Part shown: in pieces, positions 11,691-58,451 of the stretch
Position numbering within the stretch: position 1 is the first letter of the stretch
Layout of the letters: the number at the start of each line of letters is the position of its first letter
Assembly: GCA_944358865.1 (NCBI GenBank)
Contig: CALVRV010000002.1
Coordinates: 12,433-76,432 of the forward strand
DNA from: an uncultured Bacilli bacterium
GTDB lineage: Bacteria > Bacillota_I > Bacilli_A > RFN20 > CAG-826
Reading direction: 5' to 3'
Length of the DNA stretch: 64,000 nucleotides
Made by a program: the position numbers and the translations under genes
Notes under the pieces: model-generated
Told to the model about the DNA's origin: nothing
The model's database searches: none
The model's input: the letters and a program-made list of their open reading frames with translations, nothing else

Positions 11691-12629
11691 ATGGAAACAA
11701 AATCTTGTCGAATTTTATTTATGGGCACTAGTGAAATATCTAGTTATGTTTTAGAATCATTAATTTTAGCTAATTATAATGTTGTTGGTGCAATTTCTCA
11801 GCCAGATAAGGCAGTTGGAAGAAAGAAAATTTTAACACCTACAAGTGTCAAATTAGTGTGTCAAAAATATCATATCAATTGTTATCAACCAATAAAAATT
11901 AGAAATGATTTTGAATTTGTAAAAGATTTAAAACCAGATGTAATTATAACATTTGCTTATGGTCAAATCGTGCCGCAGGAATTATTAGATATTCCAACGA
12001 TTGGATCAATTAATTTACATGGTTCTATTTTACCAAAACTACGTGGCGCCGCTCCTATACAACGAGCGATTATTAATGGTGATAAAATAACTGGCATTAC
12101 CTTAATGGAAATGGTCAATAAAATGGATGCTGGTAAGATGTATGCTAAAAAATATTTAAATATTGACGATGATGATAATTCGACAACATTGTTTAATAAA
12201 ATGAAAATATTAGCTAAAGATGTTATTTTAGAATATCTTCCTTTATATATTAACGGTTCATTAAAAGGTGAAGAGCAAGATGAAAGCCAAGTTAGTTTTG
12301 CTAATATGATCAAAAAAGATGATGAAAAATTAAAATTAGATTTGACATGTAAACAATTTATAAATTGGGTTAGAGGATTAAGTGAGAATCCAGGCGGATA
12401 TTTATATTTTAAAAATAAAAAACTTATTTTATACAAAGTAAAATTATCTTTACTTTCTCCTTCAAATTGTCTTGGAGAAATAATTAATGCTGATAAAAAT
12501 AGTCTTACTTTTTCTTTAAAAGATGGGGCAATTGATATTCTTGAATTAAAATTAGAAGGTAAAAATAAAATGTCATATAAGGATTTTGTCAATGGTCACC
12601 ATGATTTATTAGGTGAAATATTATCTTAA
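11691..12629 (+). CDS. fmt: Methionyl-tRNA formyltransferase
   Basis: 312 aa. Contains ILFMGT, the formyltransferase core SINLHGSILPKLRGAAPIQRAI, and a C-terminal Fmt domain. Confidence 0.9.
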   Translation: METKSCRILFMGTSEISSYVLESLILANYNVVGAISQPDKAVGRKKILTPTSVKLVCQKYHINCYQPIKIRNDFEFVKDLKPDVIITFAYGQIVPQELLDIPTIGSINLHGSILPKLRGAAPIQRAIINGDKITGITLMEMVNKMDAGKMYAKKYLNIDDDDNSTTLFNKMKILAKDVILEYLPLYINGSLKGEEQDESQVSFANMIKKDDEKLKLDLTCKQFINWVRGLSENPGGYLYFKNKKLILYKVKLSLLSPSNCLGEIINADKNSLTFSLKDGAIDILELKLEGKNKMSYKDFVNGHHDLLGEILS

Positions 12630-12630
12630 T

Positions 12631-14982
12631 ATGGGCATTTATCAATTAACTTTAAGTGTACATCAACTAGTTGATTTTTTATTAAGAAGTGGCGATATCG
12701 ATAATCGTGTTTTTAATAAAGAAACAATGAATGAAGGTTCTAGACTTCATGCCTTATATCAAAGCAAACAAAATAATAATTATCTTGCCGAATATAATTT
12801 AAAACAAACCTTTCACTATCAAGATTATGATATAACTTTACAAGGTCGCGCTGATGGAATAATTATTGAGAAAGATACATTTATTATTGATGAAATAAAA
12901 ACTAGTGTTGAAGATTTAAATACTTTTAAAGAAAAGCACCTAGATTGGCATTTAGGGCAAGCTAAATGTTATGCTTTAATGTTTTGTAAAGAAAGAAAAT
13001 TAAATGATATTCAAATTCGAATATCTTATTTTAGACAAGGTAAAAAAGATAAATTATTTTTAAATTTTACTTTTCAATATGATGAATTATTAGAATTTAT
13101 AAACAATCTTTTTGAGCAATATTTAAATTTTTATAATATTATTTTAAGAAATCGAATTTTGTTAAATGAAAGTATTAAAGATTTACCTTTTCCTTTTAAA
13201 AATTATCGAAATGGCCAGCAAAAGTTAGCTAAATTTGTTTATTTTGTTGGAAAACAAAGAAAAAAATTATTTGTCCAAGCTCCAACCGGTATTGGTAAAA
13301 CAATGTCTTGTCTTTATCCTTTTGTCAAATTATTAAAAGATAATTCAGAAAGTAAAATTTTTTATTTGACCGCTAAAAATTCTGGTAAATTAAGCGCTGG
13401 TAACGCTATTGAAATTTTAAAAAATAAAGGGTTAAAAGCTCATTCAATTATTGTTACTGCTAAAGAAAAAATATGTCCTTATGTAGATAAAAATTGTAAT
13501 CCAGATGAATGTCCTCTAACTAAATCATATTATAACAATCTAGCACGTGTCTTATCATATTGTTTAGAAAAATATGATAGTTTTAATCAAGAAAATATTT
13601 TTGATATTGCTTTAAAAGAAAGCATGTGTCCTTTTGAATTAAGTTTAGATTTATCTTTATACTGCGATATTATTGTTTGTGATTATAATTATTTTTTTGA
13701 TCCTCTTGTATATATGAAAAGATATTTTGATGAGGATGCTTCTAATTTTTTATTATTAATCGATGAAGCGCACAATTTAGTAGATCGCAGTAAAGAAATG
13801 TATTCTGCAAATATTAATTTTGACAATATTAAAAAATATAAAAAAGAAAATAAAAATATCGATAATAAAAAATTAAAAAGAATTATCAATAAGCTTTATA
13901 AATTATCTAAACTATATGATTCAATTTGCCAAGATGAATACACTGTATTGTTAGATTTACTTGAAGATACAAATAAAATATTTAAAAATTTTTATAATGT
14001 CTATCTTGATATATCTAAAAATGAATCTAAATTAATTAATTCAAGATTAACTGACATTTTTTTAGATATTAATAAATTTATCAAAATTTATGAACTATAT
14101 TCAGATAACTATATTTTATATTTCCATAAAAAAATCATAAAAAATAAAAGTTATGACTTAAATTTAACTTTGAAATGTCTAGATGCATCAAAATATTTAT
14201 CTAGCCTTTTAAAAAATGTTAAGTCCTCAGTATTTTTTAGTGCGACATTGACACCATTTAATTATTACGCAGATGTTTTAGGAGGAGATAAAAATATTGA
14301 TCCATATTTATCTTTACCATCTCCTTTTCCTATTGAAAATATGCTTATGATGATTGCCCCTAATATATCAATAAAATATAAAAAAAGATTAGAAAGTTAT
14401 CAAATTGTCAGCGATTATATAAAGACTTTTATATCACATCAAAAAGGTAATTATTTTGTTTTTGCTCCAAGTTATGAATATTTAAACAATTTAATTCCTT
14501 ATTTAGATGATATTGACGCTAAAAAAGTGGTTCAGACAACTGATATGGATGATATAGAGAAGCAAAAATTTTTAGATAATTTTACTTTAAATCCTGATAA
14601 GACCACTGTTGGTGTGGTTGTTTTAGGTGGAGCTTTTAGTGAAGGAATTGATTTAGTTAGCGATCGTCTAATCGGCGCAGTTATTATTGGTGTTGGATTA
14701 CCAAAAGTTAGTTTTGAATTAGATGCAATAGCAAAATATTATGATAAATTAGGTATGCCTGGATTAGATTATGCTTATGTTGATCCTGGAATGAATAAAG
14801 TTATGCAAGCTGTAGGTCGTGTGATTAGAAGTGAAAAAGATAAGGGTGCAATACTATTAATTGATGAACGATATACGCTGAATAAATATCAAGATTTATT
14901 CAAAAGTGAGTGGCGCAATTACCAAGTCGTATTTAATAAAGAAGATATTAATCAATTATTGCTACAATTTTATAAAAAATAA
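12631..14982 (+). CDS. PD-(D/E)xK nuclease fused to XPD/DinG-type Fe-S DNA helicase
   Basis: N-terminal RecB-like nuclease motifs (GRADG, IDEIKT, QAKCYAL). Walker A QAPTGIGKT and a Cys cluster (CPYVDKNCNPDEC, MCPFE, VCDYNYFF). DEAH box LLIDEAHNL and motif VI QAVGRVIRS. The ORF track starts at GTG 12613; ATG 12631 is preferred because AGGTGA lies upstream. Confidence 0.8.
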   Translation: MGIYQLTLSVHQLVDFLLRSGDIDNRVFNKETMNEGSRLHALYQSKQNNNYLAEYNLKQTFHYQDYDITLQGRADGIIIEKDTFIIDEIKTSVEDLNTFKEKHLDWHLGQAKCYALMFCKERKLNDIQIRISYFRQGKKDKLFLNFTFQYDELLEFINNLFEQYLNFYNIILRNRILLNESIKDLPFPFKNYRNGQQKLAKFVYFVGKQRKKLFVQAPTGIGKTMSCLYPFVKLLKDNSESKIFYLTAKNSGKLSAGNAIEILKNKGLKAHSIIVTAKEKICPYVDKNCNPDECPLTKSYYNNLARVLSYCLEKYDSFNQENIFDIALKESMCPFELSLDLSLYCDIIVCDYNYFFDPLVYMKRYFDEDASNFLLLIDEAHNLVDRSKEMYSANINFDNIKKYKKENKNIDNKKLKRIINKLYKLSKLYDSICQDEYTVLLDLLEDTNKIFKNFYNVYLDISKNESKLINSRLTDIFLDINKFIKIYELYSDNYILYFHKKIIKNKSYDLNLTLKCLDASKYLSSLLKNVKSSVFFSATLTPFNYYADVLGGDKNIDPYLSLPSPFPIENMLMMIAPNISIKYKKRLESYQIVSDYIKTFISHQKGNYFVFAPSYEYLNNLIPYLDDIDAKKVVQTTDMDDIEKQKFLDNFTLNPDKTTVGVVVLGGAFSEGIDLVSDRLIGAVIIGVGLPKVSFELDAIAKYYDKLGMPGLDYAYVDPGMNKVMQAVGRVIRSEKDKGAILLIDERYTLNKYQDLFKSEWRNYQVVFNKEDINQLLLQFYKK

Positions 14983-14997
14983 GATAAAATATAGGCT

Positions 14998-16809
14998 ATG
15001 GATTTTAAGCAAGAAAAAATTAGAAACTTCTCAATCATCGCCCATATTGATCATGGTAAATCCACTTTAGCGGATCGAATTTTAGAATTAACTGGCGCAG
15101 TTGAAGAACGTGAGATGAAAGATCAACTTCTCGATTCTATGGATTTAGAAAGAGAAAGAGGCATTACTATTAAACTTAATGCTGTTACAATAAAATATAA
15201 CGACAATGGCGAAGATTATATATTTAATTTAATTGATACACCTGGGCATGTAGACTTTTCTTATGAAGTATCTCGTTCATTAGCAGCGTGTGAAGGAGCC
15301 TTATTAGTAGTTGATGCTTCACAAGGTGTTGAAGCACAAACTTTAGCTAATGTATATTTAGCAATAGATAATGATTTAACTATTATTCCTGTCATTAATA
15401 AAATTGATTTACCAAGCGCACAAATTGATTTGGTAAAACAAGAAATTGAGCAAAGAATTGGCATTGACGCTAGTAAAGCCTTATTAGTGTCTGCTAAAAC
15501 AGGAGCTAATATTGGTGATGTATTAAAAGCAATTGTAAAAGATATTCCTTGTCCCAATGGCGATATCAATAAACCATTAAAAGCCTTAATTTTTGATAGT
15601 TATTATGATTCGTATCGTGGGGTTGTTGTATTAGTAAGAATATTTGATGGGCAAGTTAATATTGGCGATAAAATTTATTTATGTAACGCCAAAAAAGAAT
15701 ATCAAGTTACTGAACTTGGAATTCGCACTCCTAAAGAATTAAAACTTAAATCTCTCCAAGCTGGTCAAGTTGGTTTTATATGTGCTCAAATTAAAGACAT
15801 TAAAGATGTTCATCCTGGTGATACAATAACCTTAAAAGATAATCCAACTTTATCTCCTTTACCAGGTTATCGCAAAATTAATCCAATGGTTTATTGCGGA
15901 CTTTATCCAGTTGACAGCGATGATTATTTAGCTTTAAAAGAGGCTTTAGAAAAGTTAGTTTTAAACGATGCTTCTTTATTTTATGAACCTGAAACAAGTC
16001 AAGCGCTAGGTTTTGGATTTCGTTTAGGGTTTTTAGGATTGCTCCATATGGATGTGGTTCAAGAAAGATTAGAAAGAGAATATGGATTAGATTTAGTTTT
16101 AACCGCACCAAGTGTTATTTATAAAGTTACATTAACTAATAAAGAAGTAATTAATTTAGATAATCCAAGTCGCTTACCTGATCTTTCTAAAGTTGATTAT
16201 ATTGAAGAACCATATGTTAAGGCTGATATAATGACTCCACAGGAATATATTGGTCCAATTATGGAATTATGCCAAGATAAAAGAGGAATATATAAAGATT
16301 TAGTTTATTTTGATGATACTAGATCAATATTAACTTATGAAATACCACTTTCAGAAATTATATATAACTTTTTTGATAGACTTAAATCTGTCACTAAAGG
16401 ATATGCTAGTTTAGATTATGAAATAAGTGATTATAAAAGATCTAATCTATGTAAATTAGATATTTTATTAAATGGTCAAGTTGTCGATGCACTATCTAGT
16501 ATTGTTTATAAACCAAGTGCTTATAATCGTGGTTTAGCAATCATTAGAAATTTAAAAAATATTATTCCAAGACAACAATTTGAAGTTCCAATTCAAGCTG
16601 CAATAGGGGGAAAAGTTATTGCTCGCGTCGATATAAAAGCGGTTAGAAAAGATGTTTTAGCTAAATGTTATGGAGGAGATATTACTCGTAAAAAGAAACT
16701 TTTAGAAAAACAAAAAGAAGGAAAAAAACGTCTTAAAAAAGTTGGATCAATAGAGATTCCTCAAGAAGCATTTATGACAATATTAAGTATCGATGATAAA
16801 GATAATTAG
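14998..16809 (+). CDS. lepA: Translation elongation factor 4 (LepA)
   Basis: 603 aa with GTPase motifs [14 protein letters not shown] and NKID. Conserved LepA C-terminal domain. Confidence 0.95.
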
Positions 16810-16878
16810 TAGTTTTTTAGTATTTATAATTGCATAGTTTTTAAATTTTTATATAATAATATAAAAGAGGTAAAAATT

Positions 16879-18330
16879 ATGGCATATGAAGAATATGGAG
16901 TTCGTTTTACAGAAGGTAAATATGCAACAAAATTAGAAGTCGCTAACGATTTACATACTCCTTTAATTGATGGAATTTGGAAAAAAATATTAGAATATCG
17001 TAAACCTTTTACTCATGCCTTACCATTATTTAGTATCGATAAAAGTATTCTTAATTTTTGCCTTTGCAATTCTATAAGTGGAAAAATTAATAGTTGTGAG
17101 ATGCGACTTATTAATTTATTAAAACGTTATTCTAAATTAAATAATGAAGAGACTAATGATTTGCAATTATTTGATAATACTTGCTACGTTGATATTTTAA
17201 AGAAAATATCATCGATGAATAATTTTGACTTAGATGACAATTATTTAAGCATGGTTGCTAATAAAAAGATTAATGATGATAGTCAACATTTTAAAATGCT
17301 TACTAATTATGTTAATGCTTTAAATAAAGCCAAAAAAATATATCACAATAAATTTGATGAAGATATGATTGCTGAGCTTTATTCAACATTAATAGACAAT
17401 TATGAATTAACTTATTTATATCGTAATCATGATAGCAAATCTCATTTATCAATGGTAAATCCAACTTATGAAGAAGCACCTTATCAAAAATTAGATAAAC
17501 TTATGTTAGATTTATGTAATTTTGTTAATAATAGCGATGTATCATACCTTGTTAAGGCAATGAGTGTCTTTTATTACATCAATTACATTAAGCCTTTTGA
17601 AAAATCTAATAAATATATGTCATTTTTATTAGCTAAAATAGTCTTAGCAAAATCTGATTTAGAAAATTTAGCTTTTGATTTAAATATAGAATCAATTCTT
17701 GTTAATTATAAAAATAGTATTCAAAAAGTATTCTTAGATGTTCAAAAAAGTAATGATTTAACTTATTTATTAATCGTGTTTTTAGATGCGACATTACAAA
17801 ATTGTGAATATCTATCTGAAATTATTAATAATTTAACTGCTTTACAATTAAAAAATGAATATTATGAGCAATCTTATCAAGAAGCAAATATCAAAAAAGA
17901 AGAAGTTAAGCAAGAAAATCATATTCAGGCTCAACTTCAAAATGAACTTTCTAATATTGAAAATGAAAAACCAATTACTATAAATAAAGAAAAGACATCA
18001 TCTTTAGATTCATTAGAGAGTAAGGATCTAGATGATAATAGACTAAATCTTGCGATAAATGTCTTGCCACCGTCATTAAGTGAAAAAGAATTACAAAGAT
18101 TAGAGGAAGATTTATTAGAAAGTGATCCTGAACTTAAACGTGGTCAAGCTTATTTTTATGTTCGTCATTGTACGATTGGCAAACGTTACACAATAAGCCA
18201 ATATAAAAAAGAATTAAGTTGTGCTTATGAAACGGCAAGAACGAGCATGGATTTACTTGCTAAATTAGGTTATTATCGTCAAGAAATGGTAAAAAATAAG
18301 AAGGTCTATACTCCAGTAAGAAGAAAGTAG
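16879..18330 (+). CDS. Fic-fold protein with degenerate active-site motif and C-terminal winged-helix domain
   Basis: Residues 180-300 follow the Fic-domain pattern. The HxFx(D/E)GNGRxxR position reads IKPFEKSNKYMSF (aa 237-249, nt 17587-17625). An E/K/Q-rich linker follows, then a C-terminal wHTH-like segment (YTISQYKKELSCAYETARTSMDLLAKLGY). Confidence 0.6.
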   Translation: MAYEEYGVRFTEGKYATKLEVANDLHTPLIDGIWKKILEYRKPFTHALPLFSIDKSILNFCLCNSISGKINSCEMRLINLLKRYSKLNNEETNDLQLFDNTCYVDILKKISSMNNFDLDDNYLSMVANKKINDDSQHFKMLTNYVNALNKAKKIYHNKFDEDMIAELYSTLIDNYELTYLYRNHDSKSHLSMVNPTYEEAPYQKLDKLMLDLCNFVNNSDVSYLVKAMSVFYYINYIKPFEKSNKYMSFLLAKIVLAKSDLENLAFDLNIESILVNYKNSIQKVFLDVQKSNDLTYLLIVFLDATLQNCEYLSEIINNLTALQLKNEYYEQSYQEANIKKEEVKQENHIQAQLQNELSNIENEKPITINKEKTSSLDSLESKDLDDNRLNLAINVLPPSLSEKELQRLEEDLLESDPELKRGQAYFYVRHCTIGKRYTISQYKKELSCAYETARTSMDLLAKLGYYRQEMVKNKKVYTPVRRK

Positions 18331-18339
18331 GGTTATAAA

Positions 18340-18600
18340 ATGATTTTTTTAATTGACATGAATTCACCTGTTGTAATATTGCTACTCATTTTAGGATGTG
18401 CCGCACTTATTGCAGTTATTGCTTTAATTATTTATAAAATTTTACATCCAAAATTAAAACAAGATAAAAAAATTGATGAAGAAAAAGCCTTGCAAGAAGA
18501 ATTAAATCGTGTTTTAGAACCAATTGACGATGAAAAAATAAGTAAAGATATTCAAAATTATCAATCGGATGAAGATAAAAAACAAGACAAAGAAAATTAA
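18340..18600 (+). CDS. Small single-pass membrane protein with charged C-terminal tail
   Basis: 86 aa with one hydrophobic helix (VVILLLILGCAALIAVIALIIY) and a K/E/D-rich tail. It starts 9 nt after the Fic-like gene and overlaps the hemW start by 32 nt. Confidence 0.5.
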   Translation: MIFLIDMNSPVVILLLILGCAALIAVIALIIYKILHPKLKQDKKIDEEKALQEELNRVLEPIDDEKISKDIQNYQSDEDKKQDKEN

Positions 18601-19717
18601 TGCTTTATATATACATATTCCATTTTGTCATAGTATATGTTCATACTGTGATTTTTTAAAGTTCATCTATAACAAAAAATGGGCTGATTTATATATTGAA
18701 CAATTAAAAAAACAATATCTATTATTAAATATTAAAAAAGGACAATTAAAAACAATATATTTTGGTGGTGGAACACCAACATCTTTAAGCATTAAACAAT
18801 TAAAAAATTTATTAGATATTTTTAAAAATGATATCAAATTAGCAAAAGAAGTCACCTTTGAAGCTAATGTTGAAGATTTGAATTTACAAAAATTAAAAAT
18901 ATTAAAACAATATGGAATTAATCGCTTATCTATCGGGGTGCAGTCATTTAATAATGAAATATTAAAAGAAATGAATCGCCATCATAATAAAATAGATGTT
19001 GTTAAATGTATTAAACTGGCAAAAAAAATTGGATTTAATAATATTAATATTGATTTAATTTTTGGTTATGAAAAACAAGATTTTGAAATATTAAAAGATG
19101 ATATAAAAAATGTTTTAAGTTTAAATGTAGAACATATATCTTGTTATAGTTTAATTTTAGAAAAAAATACTAAATTATATTTAAAAAATAAAAACGCTAA
19201 AGATGATGATACTTTAAGATCTTATTTTGACTATGTCCATAAAACATTAAAAAAACATGGTTATATACATTATGAAATATCAAATTTTGCGAAAAAAGGC
19301 TACTTTAGCAAGCATAATTTAAATTATTGGAAAGATAATCAATATTATGCATTAGGAGTTGGGTCAAGTGGATATGTTAACAATTATCGTTATAAGTATA
19401 GCGGTAATCTAATTTCATATCTAAAAGGGGAATATAATTTTGTTGAAAATGAAAAAATAACTTTAAAAGATGATGTTTTATATTATTTAATGTTAAATTT
19501 AAGAACAAAATTTGGTTTTACATATAAAGATTTTTATCAAAGATTTAATTTTGATATTTTGATAATTAAACCATTACTTAATAAATTTAAACAAGAAAAA
19601 TTATTAAAACTAAACAAAAATAATATGGCATTAACTTATGATGGTGCGATGATATTAGATAGTGTAGTTATAGATATTATCAGCACTTTAGAAAAAGAAA
19701 AATGTCTAAATGATTGA
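18569..19717 (+). CDS. hemW: Radical SAM heme chaperone HemW (HemN-like, oxygen-independent coproporphyrinogen oxidase family)
   Basis: YIHIPFCHSICSYCDF contains the CxxxCxxC radical SAM motif. Position lepA-hemW-hrcA matches Bacillus. Stop codon is TGA. Confidence 0.85.
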   Translation: MKIKNKTKKINALYIHIPFCHSICSYCDFLKFIYNKKWADLYIEQLKKQYLLLNIKKGQLKTIYFGGGTPTSLSIKQLKNLLDIFKNDIKLAKEVTFEANVEDLNLQKLKILKQYGINRLSIGVQSFNNEILKEMNRHHNKIDVVKCIKLAKKIGFNNINIDLIFGYEKQDFEILKDDIKNVLSLNVEHISCYSLILEKNTKLYLKNKNAKDDDTLRSYFDYVHKTLKKHGYIHYEISNFAKKGYFSKHNLNYWKDNQYYALGVGSSGYVNNYRYKYSGNLISYLKGEYNFVENEKITLKDDVLYYLMLNLRTKFGFTYKDFYQRFNFDILIIKPLLNKFKQEKLLKLNKNNMALTYDGAMILDSVVIDIISTLEKEKCLND

Positions 19718-19760: not shown

Positions 19761-19787
19761 TTAGCACTTTTTTGTTGACAGTGCTAT
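19761..19787 (+). promoter_or_regulatory. CIRCE operator 1 (HrcA binding site)
   Basis: TTAGCACTT-N9-CAGTGCTAT compared with the consensus TTAGCACTC-N9-GAGTGCTAA. Confidence 0.8.
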
Positions 19788-19802
19788 TTTTGCGCATATA
19801 AT
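19775..19802 (+). promoter_or_regulatory. Candidate sigma-A promoter of the hrcA-grpE-dnaK-dnaJ operon
   Basis: -35 TTGACA (19775-19780), 16-nt spacer, -10 TATAAT (19797-19802). The -35 box is embedded in the first CIRCE element. Confidence 0.6.
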
Positions 19803-19807
19803 AGTAT

Positions 19808-19834
19808 TTAGCACTTGGGTAATATAAGTGCCAA
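19808..19834 (+). promoter_or_regulatory. CIRCE operator 2 (HrcA binding site)
   Basis: TTAGCACTT-N9-AAGTGCCAA, lying just downstream of the -10 box and abutting the RBS. Confidence 0.75.
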
Positions 19835-42497: not shown

Positions 42498-42673
42498 ATG
42501 CTTTTAATTAATAAAGAACAAAATGTTATTATATGTTAAAAGTTAATATAAAGTTAAAAAATCAGTCAACGTAAAACTTTGAATAGCGCTATATAAATTG
42601 TATAGTATTATAATTTTTGTAAAAATATTAACAATATAAATAAACTACTAAAAAACTACTAGATATATACTAA

Positions 42674-51111: not shown

Positions 51112-51347
51112 TAATTTTTTGTTAGATAATTTACTTCGCATAATTGCTATTATGTTAACCAAAAATAATATATTTAGGCCTGTACTAATAAATTTTATGA
51201 TAAAAACGCCTTAAAATAATATGGTTTAAAAGTTATCCACAAAAAAATATTTACTAAATATCTACTATAAAACTACTAATATCATAAGCACCACTTATTA
51301 ATTTGTATCTTTTATTTATCTAAAACAAAACGCTTTTAATTATATCT

Positions 51348-56574: not shown

Positions 56575-58422
56575 TTATTTCAAATTATTTAAAATATCGT
56601 CAGGCGAAATACAAGCAAGTTTTAATTGCTCATTTATAGACATATGAGAATAATATTTATCTTCAATTGCAAAAATTTTAATTCTGCCTTTAAAATTGTT
56701 TTCTAATAATAAATTTTGTAAATGCAAGCAAAATCCTGATTTATTTGCGTAGGCATCATAAATAAAAATTTCTTCGTAATTTAATAGTTGGTTAACATAA
56801 TCTATACATATAGGTTTTTGATATAAAGCTTCATAGTAATCACATTTAATGTTGTTTTCTAAAATGAGTTTATAAACTTGATAACCAGCATTTGAAAAAC
56901 TAATTAAACATTTTTTGTTTTGTTTATTAATTAATTTGTTCCATCCCATAAATTTAGATGTCGGATATTTTTTAAATTGGTTAACATAATCTTTTGCATA
57001 TCGAATAACAAATAGTCCATGATTATTTAATGATTCATTAAGCAATTCATAACAACTTTGTTTGCTTGTCGCCATTGATATAATAGAATTTGGTAAATCA
57101 TATAAGAAAGATTCATCAAAAGAACCTTGGTGTGTATCGCCATCAAATCCAGGCATTCCAGCACGATCAACAAGCAATGTCATATTGATGTTCATACGTG
57201 TAATATCATGATTTATTTCATCGTAAGCACGTTGTAAAAATGTAGAATACATCGATACAATTGGATGAAAACCACTTAGCGCTAGACCTTGTGCCATGAC
57301 TATAGCGTGTTCTTCGCTAATACCGACATCAAAAGTTCGATCTGGAAAACCTTTATATATTTTTTCAAGGCAAGATCCTTTCATTGTTGCAGGATTTATC
57401 AAGACTAGTTCTTGATTATTTTTCATCAAATCATATAAAGCATCACCATAAATTTTAGAAAAAGTTTCTTTATTACTTATATTTAAGCTTATCCCAGTTT
57501 TAATATCAAAAGGTTCGACTCCATGCCAAGAACCATTATTATCGATTTCACTATATTTATATCCGCGGCCTTTATTTGTTTTAATGTGTACAACAACTGG
57601 TTGTTTAAATTTTTTGGCCTTTAAAAAAACTTTCTCTAATTTTTTGATATTATGTCCATCACAAGGTCCGATATATTTTAAAGATAAATTATCAAATATT
57701 GTAGATGGGATGAGAATTTTTGCAATTCTATTTTTGATAAGCGAACTAAAAGCATATATTTTTTTGCCTAATGTAGTTGTTGATAAAAATTTTTTATATC
57801 GCCTTTTAGCGTTCATATAAGAGGTTGAATTTGAAATTTTTCTAAATAAGTTAGACAATCCACCAATTGGCTTTGATATTGACATATCATTGTCATTTAA
57901 AACAATAATCATTTTATGTTGATTAAAGGAAAGATTATTTAAACCTTCAAAGGCTAAACCATTAGCGATACTTGCATCACCAATAAATGATATTATTTCA
58001 TAATTTTCTTTTTTTAAGTCACGGCCAATCGCCATTCCATACGCTGCACTTATCGAAGTTGATGAATGACCAGCTTCAAAACAATCATATTTTGATTCAC
58101 TTCTTTTTTGAAAGCCGGATACACCATCTTTGTGTCTTAAATTATCAAGACTGCGTCCAGTTAAAAGCTTATAAGTATAGCTTTGATGCCCTACATCAAA
58201 TAAAAGTTTGTCATAATCAAAATTAAAAACACGTAAAAGCGCAATAGTGGCTTCAACCACACCTAAATTGCTTGATAGATGTCCACCATTAATCGATACT
58301 TTATTAATGATTTCATCGCGAATATTTTTTGCTAAACCATCAAGTTCCTTATAGGAATATTTTTTAATATCATTTGGGTTTTTAATATCGCTTATTTGAA
58401 TGTTTTTGATTTCTTTTTTCAT
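56575..58422 (-). CDS. dxs: 1-deoxy-D-xylulose-5-phosphate synthase (MEP pathway)
   Basis: GHLSSNLGVVE, DVGHQSY and the GDASIANG ThDP motif. 615 aa. Confidence 0.92.
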   Translation of the reverse strand: MKKEIKNIQISDIKNPNDIKKYSYKELDGLAKNIRDEIINKVSINGGHLSSNLGVVEATIALLRVFNFDYDKLLFDVGHQSYTYKLLTGRSLDNLRHKDGVSGFQKRSESKYDCFEAGHSSTSISAAYGMAIGRDLKKENYEIISFIGDASIANGLAFEGLNNLSFNQHKMIIVLNDNDMSISKPIGGLSNLFRKISNSTSYMNAKRRYKKFLSTTTLGKKIYAFSSLIKNRIAKILIPSTIFDNLSLKYIGPCDGHNIKKLEKVFLKAKKFKQPVVVHIKTNKGRGYKYSEIDNNGSWHGVEPFDIKTGISLNISNKETFSKIYGDALYDLMKNNQELVLINPATMKGSCLEKIYKGFPDRTFDVGISEEHAIVMAQGLALSGFHPIVSMYSTFLQRAYDEINHDITRMNINMTLLVDRAGMPGFDGDTHQGSFDESFLYDLPNSIISMATSKQSCYELLNESLNNHGLFVIRYAKDYVNQFKKYPTSKFMGWNKLINKQNKKCLISFSNAGYQVYKLILENNIKCDYYEALYQKPICIDYVNQLLNYEEIFIYDAYANKSGFCLHLQNLLLENNFKGRIKIFAIEDKYYSHMSINEQLKLACISPDDILNNLK

Positions 58423-58451
58423 ACTAAATATATACTAATTTTATACTAATA

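Follow-up and report, generated by a model that had tools for sequence, protein, structure and literature searches.

Which function has been kept by a Fic-fold protein that no longer carries the motifs of a Fic enzyme? The question is raised by a gene lying between lepA and hemW in a 64,000-nucleotide (nt) stretch of DNA from an uncultured Bacilli bacterium (contig CALVRV010000002.1, positions 12,433–76,432), the whole of which is referred to below as the window. As far as sequence comparison and a predicted structure can establish it, the 483-residue product of this gene, here called the pseudo-Fic protein, is confirmed as a conserved, catalytically dead Fic-fold pseudoenzyme with a DNA-binding-type tail. 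The gene is accompanied by phased direct repeats of the hexamer TTAGTA, one set at its own promoter and others clustered at the replication terminus and its dif site. We lean, if only slightly, toward a reading in which the C-terminal winged helix-turn-helix (wHTH) domain of the protein would bind these arrays, making it a terminus- or dif-associated factor built on a dead Fic scaffold.

The Fic assignment is evident in both sequence and predicted structure. The Pfam Fic family (PF02661) matches residues 159–256 above its cut-off (E = 2.7e-6; 28.6 bits versus 24 bits) and is the sole Pfam match of the whole protein; an NCBIfam scan of the 483 residues gave no match. A profile built from 36 homologues detects solved Fic structures, with E-values of 9.9e-14 for 4rgl (residues 65–314) and 7.7e-9 for CbFic2 (8cil). 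The AlphaFold model has a mean predicted local distance difference test (pLDDT) score of 83, and its best Foldseek matches are the Fic–wHTH proteins CbFic2 and SoFic, with the Fic proteins 4rgl and FICD ranking next. The Foldseek probability is 1.0 for 8cil, 3zcn and 4rgl, with E-values from 1e-8 to 6.5e-7 for the Fic–wHTH relatives, and the full-length alignments span 420–450 columns of 8cil and 3zcn, placing a C-terminal winged helix after the Fic core as in those structures.

The Fic core is flanked by segments that differ greatly in how well they are conserved and modeled. At the N-terminus, a 62-residue domain of two helices and a beta hairpin contains six positions (F10, Y15, D31, W34, Y40 and R41) conserved at 95% or more; Pfam found no match in residues 1–157 alone, even at E-values up to 10, and no DUF4172 or Fic_N domain. 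The E/K/Q-rich linker that follows the core varies in length and sequence among homologues, with pLDDT values below 50 for residues 362–397. Residues 421–483 are predicted to form three helices and a beta wing, the fold of a winged helix, with a recognition helix reading Y450-ETARTSMDLL and a calculated isoelectric point of ∼9.7 (versus ∼5.5 for the whole protein). Modeled alone, the C-terminal domain reaches a pLDDT of 86 and its fold matches are DNA-binding wHTH proteins: TubR, AspA, TrmBL2, MarR and the SoFic wHTH, all of them weak (E-values of at least 3e-3). Pfam found no match in the C-terminal 95 residues alone, and a PDB sequence search with the C-terminal profile returned chance matches only.

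HMMER and hhalign agree in setting IKPFEKSNKYMSFL (I-K-P-F-E-K-S-N-K-Y-M-S-F-L) opposite the canonical IHPFxDGNGRMGRL, with KPFEKSNKYMSF occupying the place of HPFx(D/E)GNGRxxR. The His, the Gly-Asn-Gly and both Arg residues are lost and the Asn alone is retained. This loss extends to the whole family: neither the His nor the GNGR element is present in any of 121 database homologues or 81 genome-derived homologues, and the His position among the former is occupied by K (111 sequences), R (8) or L (1). The consensus of the genome-derived set, [KR]-P-F-x-x-[YFH]-[NS]-[DE]-E-[IVM]-A, places [DE]-E where the phosphate-binding GNGR turn would be, indicating that this turn has become acidic. Upstream of the motif, Y181, R182, Y197 and P201 are conserved; the model has low confidence at residues 190–193 and contains no clear beta-hairpin flap. 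The class II inhibitory motif, (S/T)xxxE(G/N), is lost as well. In an hhalign comparison with P0123, the nearest canonical class II relative, the intact SLAIEN motif of that protein falls opposite a variable K109…M113-N114 segment, where the family consensus is IAxKxxL. Conservation is instead highest at the C-terminal end, as judged by the mean frequency of the top residue: 0.78 for the wHTH, 0.72 for the acidic helix, 0.66 for the N-terminal 62 residues and 0.61 for the Fic core. The recognition helix segment YETARTSM is identical across the order, including its most divergent lineages. The initial annotation had described a Fic fold with a replaced catalytic motif, a long linker and a wHTH-like end, and had proposed a conserved pseudoenzyme rather than decay in one strain; these points are all borne out.

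Could the Fic domain nonetheless still be an enzyme, with Lys or Arg standing in for His at a non-canonical site that performs a different modification? Some pseudoenzymes have migrated catalytic residues (PMC10211241), which we count in favor of this possibility, and the family keeps P239 and F240 invariant and shows strong conservation of K/R238, N/S244, E246 and K253. We nevertheless regard it as very improbable. The former GNGR turn is acidic in most members, K, R, Q or L can occupy the His position, the family has lost the inhibitory motif required by active Fic enzymes, and the pocket is less conserved than the wHTH. Moreover, the window protein departs from the family consensus at S243, K245 and Y246, and in an f5 member the His position is taken by L and E246 is replaced by Y. 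Since these two proteins have lost even the family-specific E246, the pocket does not behave as a conserved alternative active site. The three departures of the window protein could also be taken as signs of a strain-specific, pseudogene-like decay of a Fic gene, but this reading is refuted by conservation and retains a negligible probability: hundreds of species have full-length, intact open reading frames (ORFs) of 440–600 residues that show 33–55% identity, contain no internal stops and keep both terminal domains invariant.

The pseudo-Fic gene belongs to the core genome of its order, probably GTDB RFN20, where it is inherited vertically and its synteny is fixed. Of 201 genomes of this order, 179 carry it. 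Relatives are encoded by 476 species-representative genomes, almost all of which are metagenome-assembled genomes (MAGs) of uncultured 'Bacilli' or 'Erysipelotrichaceae' from rumen and gut. Coprobacillus sp. CAG:826 is among these relatives, and its name would point to family CAG-826 of order RFN20 (PMC10868615). A survey of the lepA–hemW interval in relatives shows a gene order (helicase, lepA, pseudo-Fic gene, small transmembrane (TM) protein gene, hemW, hrcA, grpE) that is essentially invariant in 80 loci. No full-length orthologue was found among ∼260 other genomes of the class. The exception outside the order is P0122 (genome G256, locus L087, 1085–1930), a 282-residue protein encoded immediately 3′ of lepA in a different order of the class, which shares the family's C-terminal wHTH (hhalign E = 8e-13) and N-terminal segment (BLASTP E = 6e-4). 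P0122 has only ∼140 residues where the Fic core would be. A TTAGTA array was found neither upstream of its gene nor elsewhere in G256, and a search for relatives of this short homologue returned only eight proteins.

This distribution disagrees with the proposal in the initial annotation that the gene was acquired as an insertion together with the small membrane protein encoded downstream. The small TM ORF does follow the pseudo-Fic gene in 77 of 77 loci. However, in genomes of the order that lack the pseudo-Fic gene, a small ORF with a TM segment and a charged tail is usually still present between lepA and hemW, so that the TM ORF belongs with hemW and was not co-acquired. The shortened relative directly after lepA in another order also argues against joint acquisition.

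The initial annotation missed the repeat array in front of the gene, along with the connection to the terminus and dif. This promoter array, two copies of TTAGTA separated by 5 bp, is the most conserved array of all: with at least 11 of 12 positions matching and within 140 nt 5′ of the start, it is found in 73 of 81 loci and is kept in the most divergent and the high-GC members. The G of each hexamer is invariant, and a third TTAGTA copy is often present. Of the 33 triple arrays in the 80 loci fetched (793 kb), 32 sit between lepA and the pseudo-Fic gene. The adjoining TTGCAT/TATAAT pair is the putative promoter of the gene, with the −10 element and Shine-Dalgarno sequence kept across loci and a weak −35 element.

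Triple arrays are also present elsewhere in the chromosome, concentrated almost exclusively around the replication terminus. The window contains four, versus 0.01 expected, and the genome as a whole has 10 triple-array matches at eight sites, versus 0–1 in six simulated genomes. Seven of the nine array sites (counting the double array at the promoter) are on a single 102-kb contig, the one where the GC skew turns from positive to negative, at ∼51.1 kb of the window; oriC, marked by a DnaA-box cluster, is on a different contig from this flip. Clustering of arrays at the terminus is also seen in eight other genomes, and in nine of nine genomes, which represent three families, an array is located 35–520 bp from the maximum of the cumulative skew. 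Each of these nine genomes has a dif-like site, ACTTCG[CT]ATAAT-N4-ATTATGT[TA]AAC, near the skew maximum and an array 92–147 nt past the XerD-arm side of dif in a fixed relative orientation. The distance from the pseudo-Fic gene to dif is 34–57 kb in nine genomes. In most gene-bearing genomes, a DnaA-box-like TT[AT]TCCAC[AC] separates dif from the array; DnaA boxes are absent beside arrays other than the dif-adjacent one. The composite formed in the window by dif, DnaA box and triple array (51133–51279) is conserved throughout the order.

The arrays often lie at convergent gene ends or fill tiny stop-to-start gaps that leave no space for a promoter. They are therefore not classical operators, and a simple transcription-factor regulon was rejected on these grounds. 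At the dxs-, dtd- and glycosidase-like genes, the array ends 0–2 nt before the start, leaving no space for a Shine-Dalgarno sequence. Three copies at an 11-bp period (2 mod 3) also place TAG in all three frames of one strand and TAA in all three of the other, turning each array into a six-frame stop; given the terminus clustering and the invariant hexamers, we judged this coincidental and discarded an all-frame stop element as the purpose of the arrays. A four-copy array (C19:17212–17250) lies ∼50 nt 5′ of an FtsA-like cell-division gene on a contig with uniformly negative skew. With respect to orientation, TTAGTA is on the leading strand, pointing to dif, in 43 of 58 arrays by a hand tally, and is oriented otherwise in 15. 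A clean Tus-like orientation rule was dropped on this evidence; the window's own genus has three wrong-way arrays. The most trap-like arrangement that we observed is in genome G073 (C12:28192–28546, loci L132–L134), where two inverted arrays enclose dif within ∼330 bp at the skew flip.

Is the pseudo-Fic protein a reasonable candidate for the array reader? Gene and arrays occur together. Stringent triple arrays are present in 96 of 179 genomes of the order with the gene and in none of the 22 without it; outside the order, 2 of 263 genomes have them, a frequency close to that of a reversed-pattern control. The dif-adjacent array is found in 18 of 18 genomes with the gene (in degenerate form in genus g44) and in 0 of 8 without it. 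Among these eight is genus g35, which has lost the gene together with all arrays; its relatives in the same family have both. Regulators of the OmpR/PhoB type are the usual readers of hexamer-N5-hexamer boxes. Their DNA-binding domain (Trans_reg_C, PF00486) was not detected in the window's genome, which is 97.65% complete, with positive controls in 10 genomes, and no homologue of RTP (PF02334) was found at the Pfam cut-off in 61 genomes of the order, with the Bacillus subtilis control recovered. Because neither type of protein is present, we infer that the pseudo-Fic protein is the best candidate for docking on the phased TTAGTA arrays. The more general expectation of the initial annotation, a DNA- or protein-binding factor, is thereby sharpened on the DNA side, where the invariant basic wHTH fits such a role and where binding itself would be the predicted activity.

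In the explanation that we favor, the family descends from class II enzymes that combine Fic and wHTH domains; it has lost the catalytic and auto-inhibitory motifs and gained the N-terminal domain. The basic, near-invariant winged helix would read head-to-tail TTAGTA hexamers, one per helical turn (11 bp), and the dead Fic domain may mediate assembly of the protein on the arrays as a scaffold for dimerization or partner binding. Autoregulation could result from the array that abuts the weak promoter of the gene itself. The outcome may be an organizer of the Ter region, an accessory factor for Xer recombination at dif, or a replication-fork barrier. An organizing or Xer-accessory role is at least as likely as fork arrest because the skew flip coincides with dif and because, on the contig of the window, three of seven arrays are in the wrong orientation.

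A number of observations weigh against array binding by the pseudo-Fic protein, and they also define its main competitor. Few independent evolutionary events underlie the joint occurrence of gene and arrays, possibly a single gain and a single loss, and any other gene with the same phyletic pattern would therefore fit as well. A stringent triple array is missing from about half of the gene-bearing genomes, in which the arrays are shorter or degenerate. Neither the recognition helix nor the hexamer varies, leaving no covariation to compare; the fold matches of the isolated wHTH are weak and generic (E-values of at least 3e-3); and the orientation of arrays toward dif is consistent only to about three-quarters (43 of 58 in the hand tally). 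All genomes in the comparison are uncultured MAGs, in which the terminus is placed by GC skew and a dif-like site only. Thus the protein might be an ordinary local regulator or protein-binding adaptor of the lepA–hemW unit, with another protein reading the arrays and controlling this promoter. Co-transcription of the gene with the membrane protein and hemW would suit such a role, as would the generic nature of wHTH domains, the conditional status of array binding and the small number of independent events behind the phyletic correlation. On the other hand, a second clade-specific DNA binder with the same distribution would be required, and OmpR-type domains and RTP homologues are not present. 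No other array is as well conserved as the one at the promoter of the gene itself, which is the usual signature of autoregulation, and gene and arrays disappeared jointly from genus g35. We consider a purely local role possible but rather unlikely.

A more specific version of our preferred explanation is that the protein and its arrays form a polar replication-fork barrier, a third type analogous to RTP/Ter and Tus/Ter, such that forks can enter the dif region and are blocked on exit. Arrays are found on both sides of the terminus with about three-quarters of them carrying TTAGTA on the leading strand toward dif, the skew flips close to an array in every one of the nine genomes, and the inverted pair in G073 encloses dif. 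The gene adjoins its own putative site, as tus does, RTP is also a winged-helix protein, and Tus and RTP are the only traps known (PMC10331603). Yet about a quarter of the arrays would stop forks before they reach dif, including those at 42646 and 63216 of the window and at C2:98994 (three of seven on this contig). The skew flip coincides with dif, which alone could explain it, and in most genomes a dif-adjacent array is present on one side of dif only. We therefore think that fork arrest of this kind is unlikely. We attach a similarly low probability to a broader proposal, a third, independently evolved terminus system in which proteins lined up head to tail as a filament along the direct repeats would restrict the fusion of forks to dif, perhaps together with Xer and a reader of the DnaA box.

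Array binding by the pseudo-Fic protein can be compared with several known systems. The closest structural relatives, CbFic2 of Coxiella burnetii (8CIL), SoFic of Shewanella (3EQX, 3ZCN) and Dde_2494 (4RGL), have the same Fic helical core followed by a winged helix. The CbFic2 wHTH binds DNA, and DNA binding drives dimerization (PMC10628234). Class II Fic AMPylases keep HPFx[DE]GNGRxxR and (S/T)xxxE(G/N), whereas both motifs are lost in every member of the pseudo-Fic family. Compared with the class II Fic–wHTH proteins, the family also has the extra 62-residue N-terminal domain, lacks DUF4172 and contains an inserted acidic linker of 60–150 residues; its gene is a syntenic core gene of one order, neither sporadic in distribution nor an effector gene. 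Bartonella BepC and the AvrB-type Fido folds are precedents for a Fic fold without the canonical motif that serves in binding instead of AMPylation. BepC (described in bioRxiv 10.1101/2020.04.17.046482) and AvrB are secreted, host-targeting effectors, in contrast to the pseudo-Fic protein, which is a housekeeping-type chromosomal protein with a DNA-binding-type domain.

Among terminus systems, RTP/Ter of B. subtilis and Tus/Ter of Escherichia coli likewise have multiple sites flanking the terminus. The rtp gene adjoins one of its own sites. The same is true of tus (PMC10331603), and one TTAGTA array is similarly located beside the pseudo-Fic gene. Tus and RTP are the only known replication-terminus protein systems and are regarded as convergent, and most bacteria are thought to have none (PMC10331603). 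The present arrays consist of 2–4 head-to-tail hexamers in 11-bp phase rather than the A/B half-sites of RTP or the 23-bp Ter site of Tus, there is no sequence relationship, PF02334 staying below its cut-off in all 61 genomes, array orientation is only ∼75% consistent, and one array is tied to dif at 92–147 nt. Confinement of sites to the terminus region (seven of nine on the terminus contig) recalls the matS sites of MatP, but matS is palindromic and MatP a ribbon-helix-helix protein, whereas the TTAGTA arrays are phased direct repeats. An arm at a fixed short distance from an Xer core site is reminiscent of the plasmid sites cer (ArgR/PepA) and psi (ArcA/PepA); those accessory arms are on plasmids and are bound by metabolic regulators, whereas the TTAGTA arrays are chromosomal and their candidate binder is a dead Fic protein. 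TubR and AspA are centromere-binding wHTH proteins that cooperatively coat direct-repeat arrays. TubR (which acts on tubC) and AspA also rank near the top of the fold matches when the C-terminal domain is compared alone, although these matches are weak (E ∼5e-3), and the two proteins differ in acting in plasmid partition and in having no Fic domain.

The features of the locus and of the arrays are collected in Table 1. The window has a G+C content of ∼25% and reads with translation table 11. The DinG/XPD-type helicase with a PD-(D/E)XK domain is found 5′ of lepA in nearly all of the 80 related loci. The ORF of the 86-residue membrane protein begins 9 nt past the pseudo-Fic stop codon. Its family has a conserved tail motif, EELxRVLxP[VI]EDE, and 14 of 27 members show a weak resemblance, below cut-off, to NCBIfam TIGR04561. 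Just 5′ of hrcA, two elements resembling the controlling inverted repeat of chaperone expression (CIRCE), with three mismatches each, bracket a perfect TTGACA-16-TATAAT sigma-70 promoter (19761–19834). The heat-shock operon thus has a separate start, leaving the pseudo-Fic ORF as part of the lepA-to-hemW stretch.

Table 1. Coordinates of the pseudo-Fic locus, its protein segments and the TTAGTA arrays (window positions, except those prefixed C2 or C13)
Feature	Position	Strand	Remarks
DinG/XPD-type helicase with N-terminal PD-(D/E)XK nuclease domain	12613–14982		
lepA	14998–16809		directly 5′ of pseudo-Fic gene
TTAGTA-N5-TTAGTA direct-repeat array	16806–16822	+	first hexamer overlaps lepA stop; abuts −35 of putative pseudo-Fic promoter
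Promoter-like elements	16830–16871	+	TTGCAT (16830–16835), 16-nt spacer, TATAAT (16852–16857), Shine-Dalgarno AAGAGGT (16866–16871)
Pseudo-Fic/wHTH gene, 483 residues	16879–18330	+	ORF call, Pfam, homologue alignment, AlphaFold model
N-terminal domain, residues 1–62	16879–17064	+	two helices and beta hairpin in model; not in canonical Fic proteins
Degenerate Fic motif, K238-P-F-E-K-S-N-K-Y-M-S-F249	17590–17625	+	versus H-P-F-x-[DE]-G-N-G-R-x-x-R; alignments, column counts
Variable acidic E/K/Q-rich linker, residues 336–397	17884–18069	+	low-confidence model
Conserved acidic helix (residues 398–420), then basic wHTH (residues 421–483)	18070–18327	+	
Single-pass membrane protein, 86 residues, acidic tail	18340–18600	+	overlaps hemW start
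hemW	18569–19717		followed by hrcA, grpE, dnaK
Triple TTAGTA array, 11-bp period	42646–42673	−	directly after plsY-like gene
dif-like Xer site ACTTCGCATAATTGCTATTATGTTAAC	51133–51159	+	8 bp from cumulative GC-skew maximum
Perfect DnaA-box 9-mer TTATCCACA	51233–51241	+	between dif and array
Triple TTAGTA array	51252–51279	−	92 nt beyond dif, in convergent intergenic gap at skew flip
Perfect triple TTAGTA array	58422–58449	−	fills xseB–dxs gap; start-abutting
Triple TTAGTA array	63216–63243	+	between aspS-like and transketolase-like genes, orientation opposite to both
Start-abutting arrays elsewhere in the genome	C2:2754–2792; C13:13565–13581		outside the window

The analysis provides a concrete, cloneable candidate for the protein that binds the arrays at the terminus and dif, and it makes a direct prediction: the wHTH domain should bind TTAGTA arrays, and the invariant G of each hexamer should be essential for binding. 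If this is correct, the pseudo-Fic protein would clearly exemplify how a pseudoenzyme can be recruited to chromosome maintenance in bacteria, and it would open the biology of the terminus and dif in a large, uncultured, Mycoplasma-related lineage of the gut and rumen.

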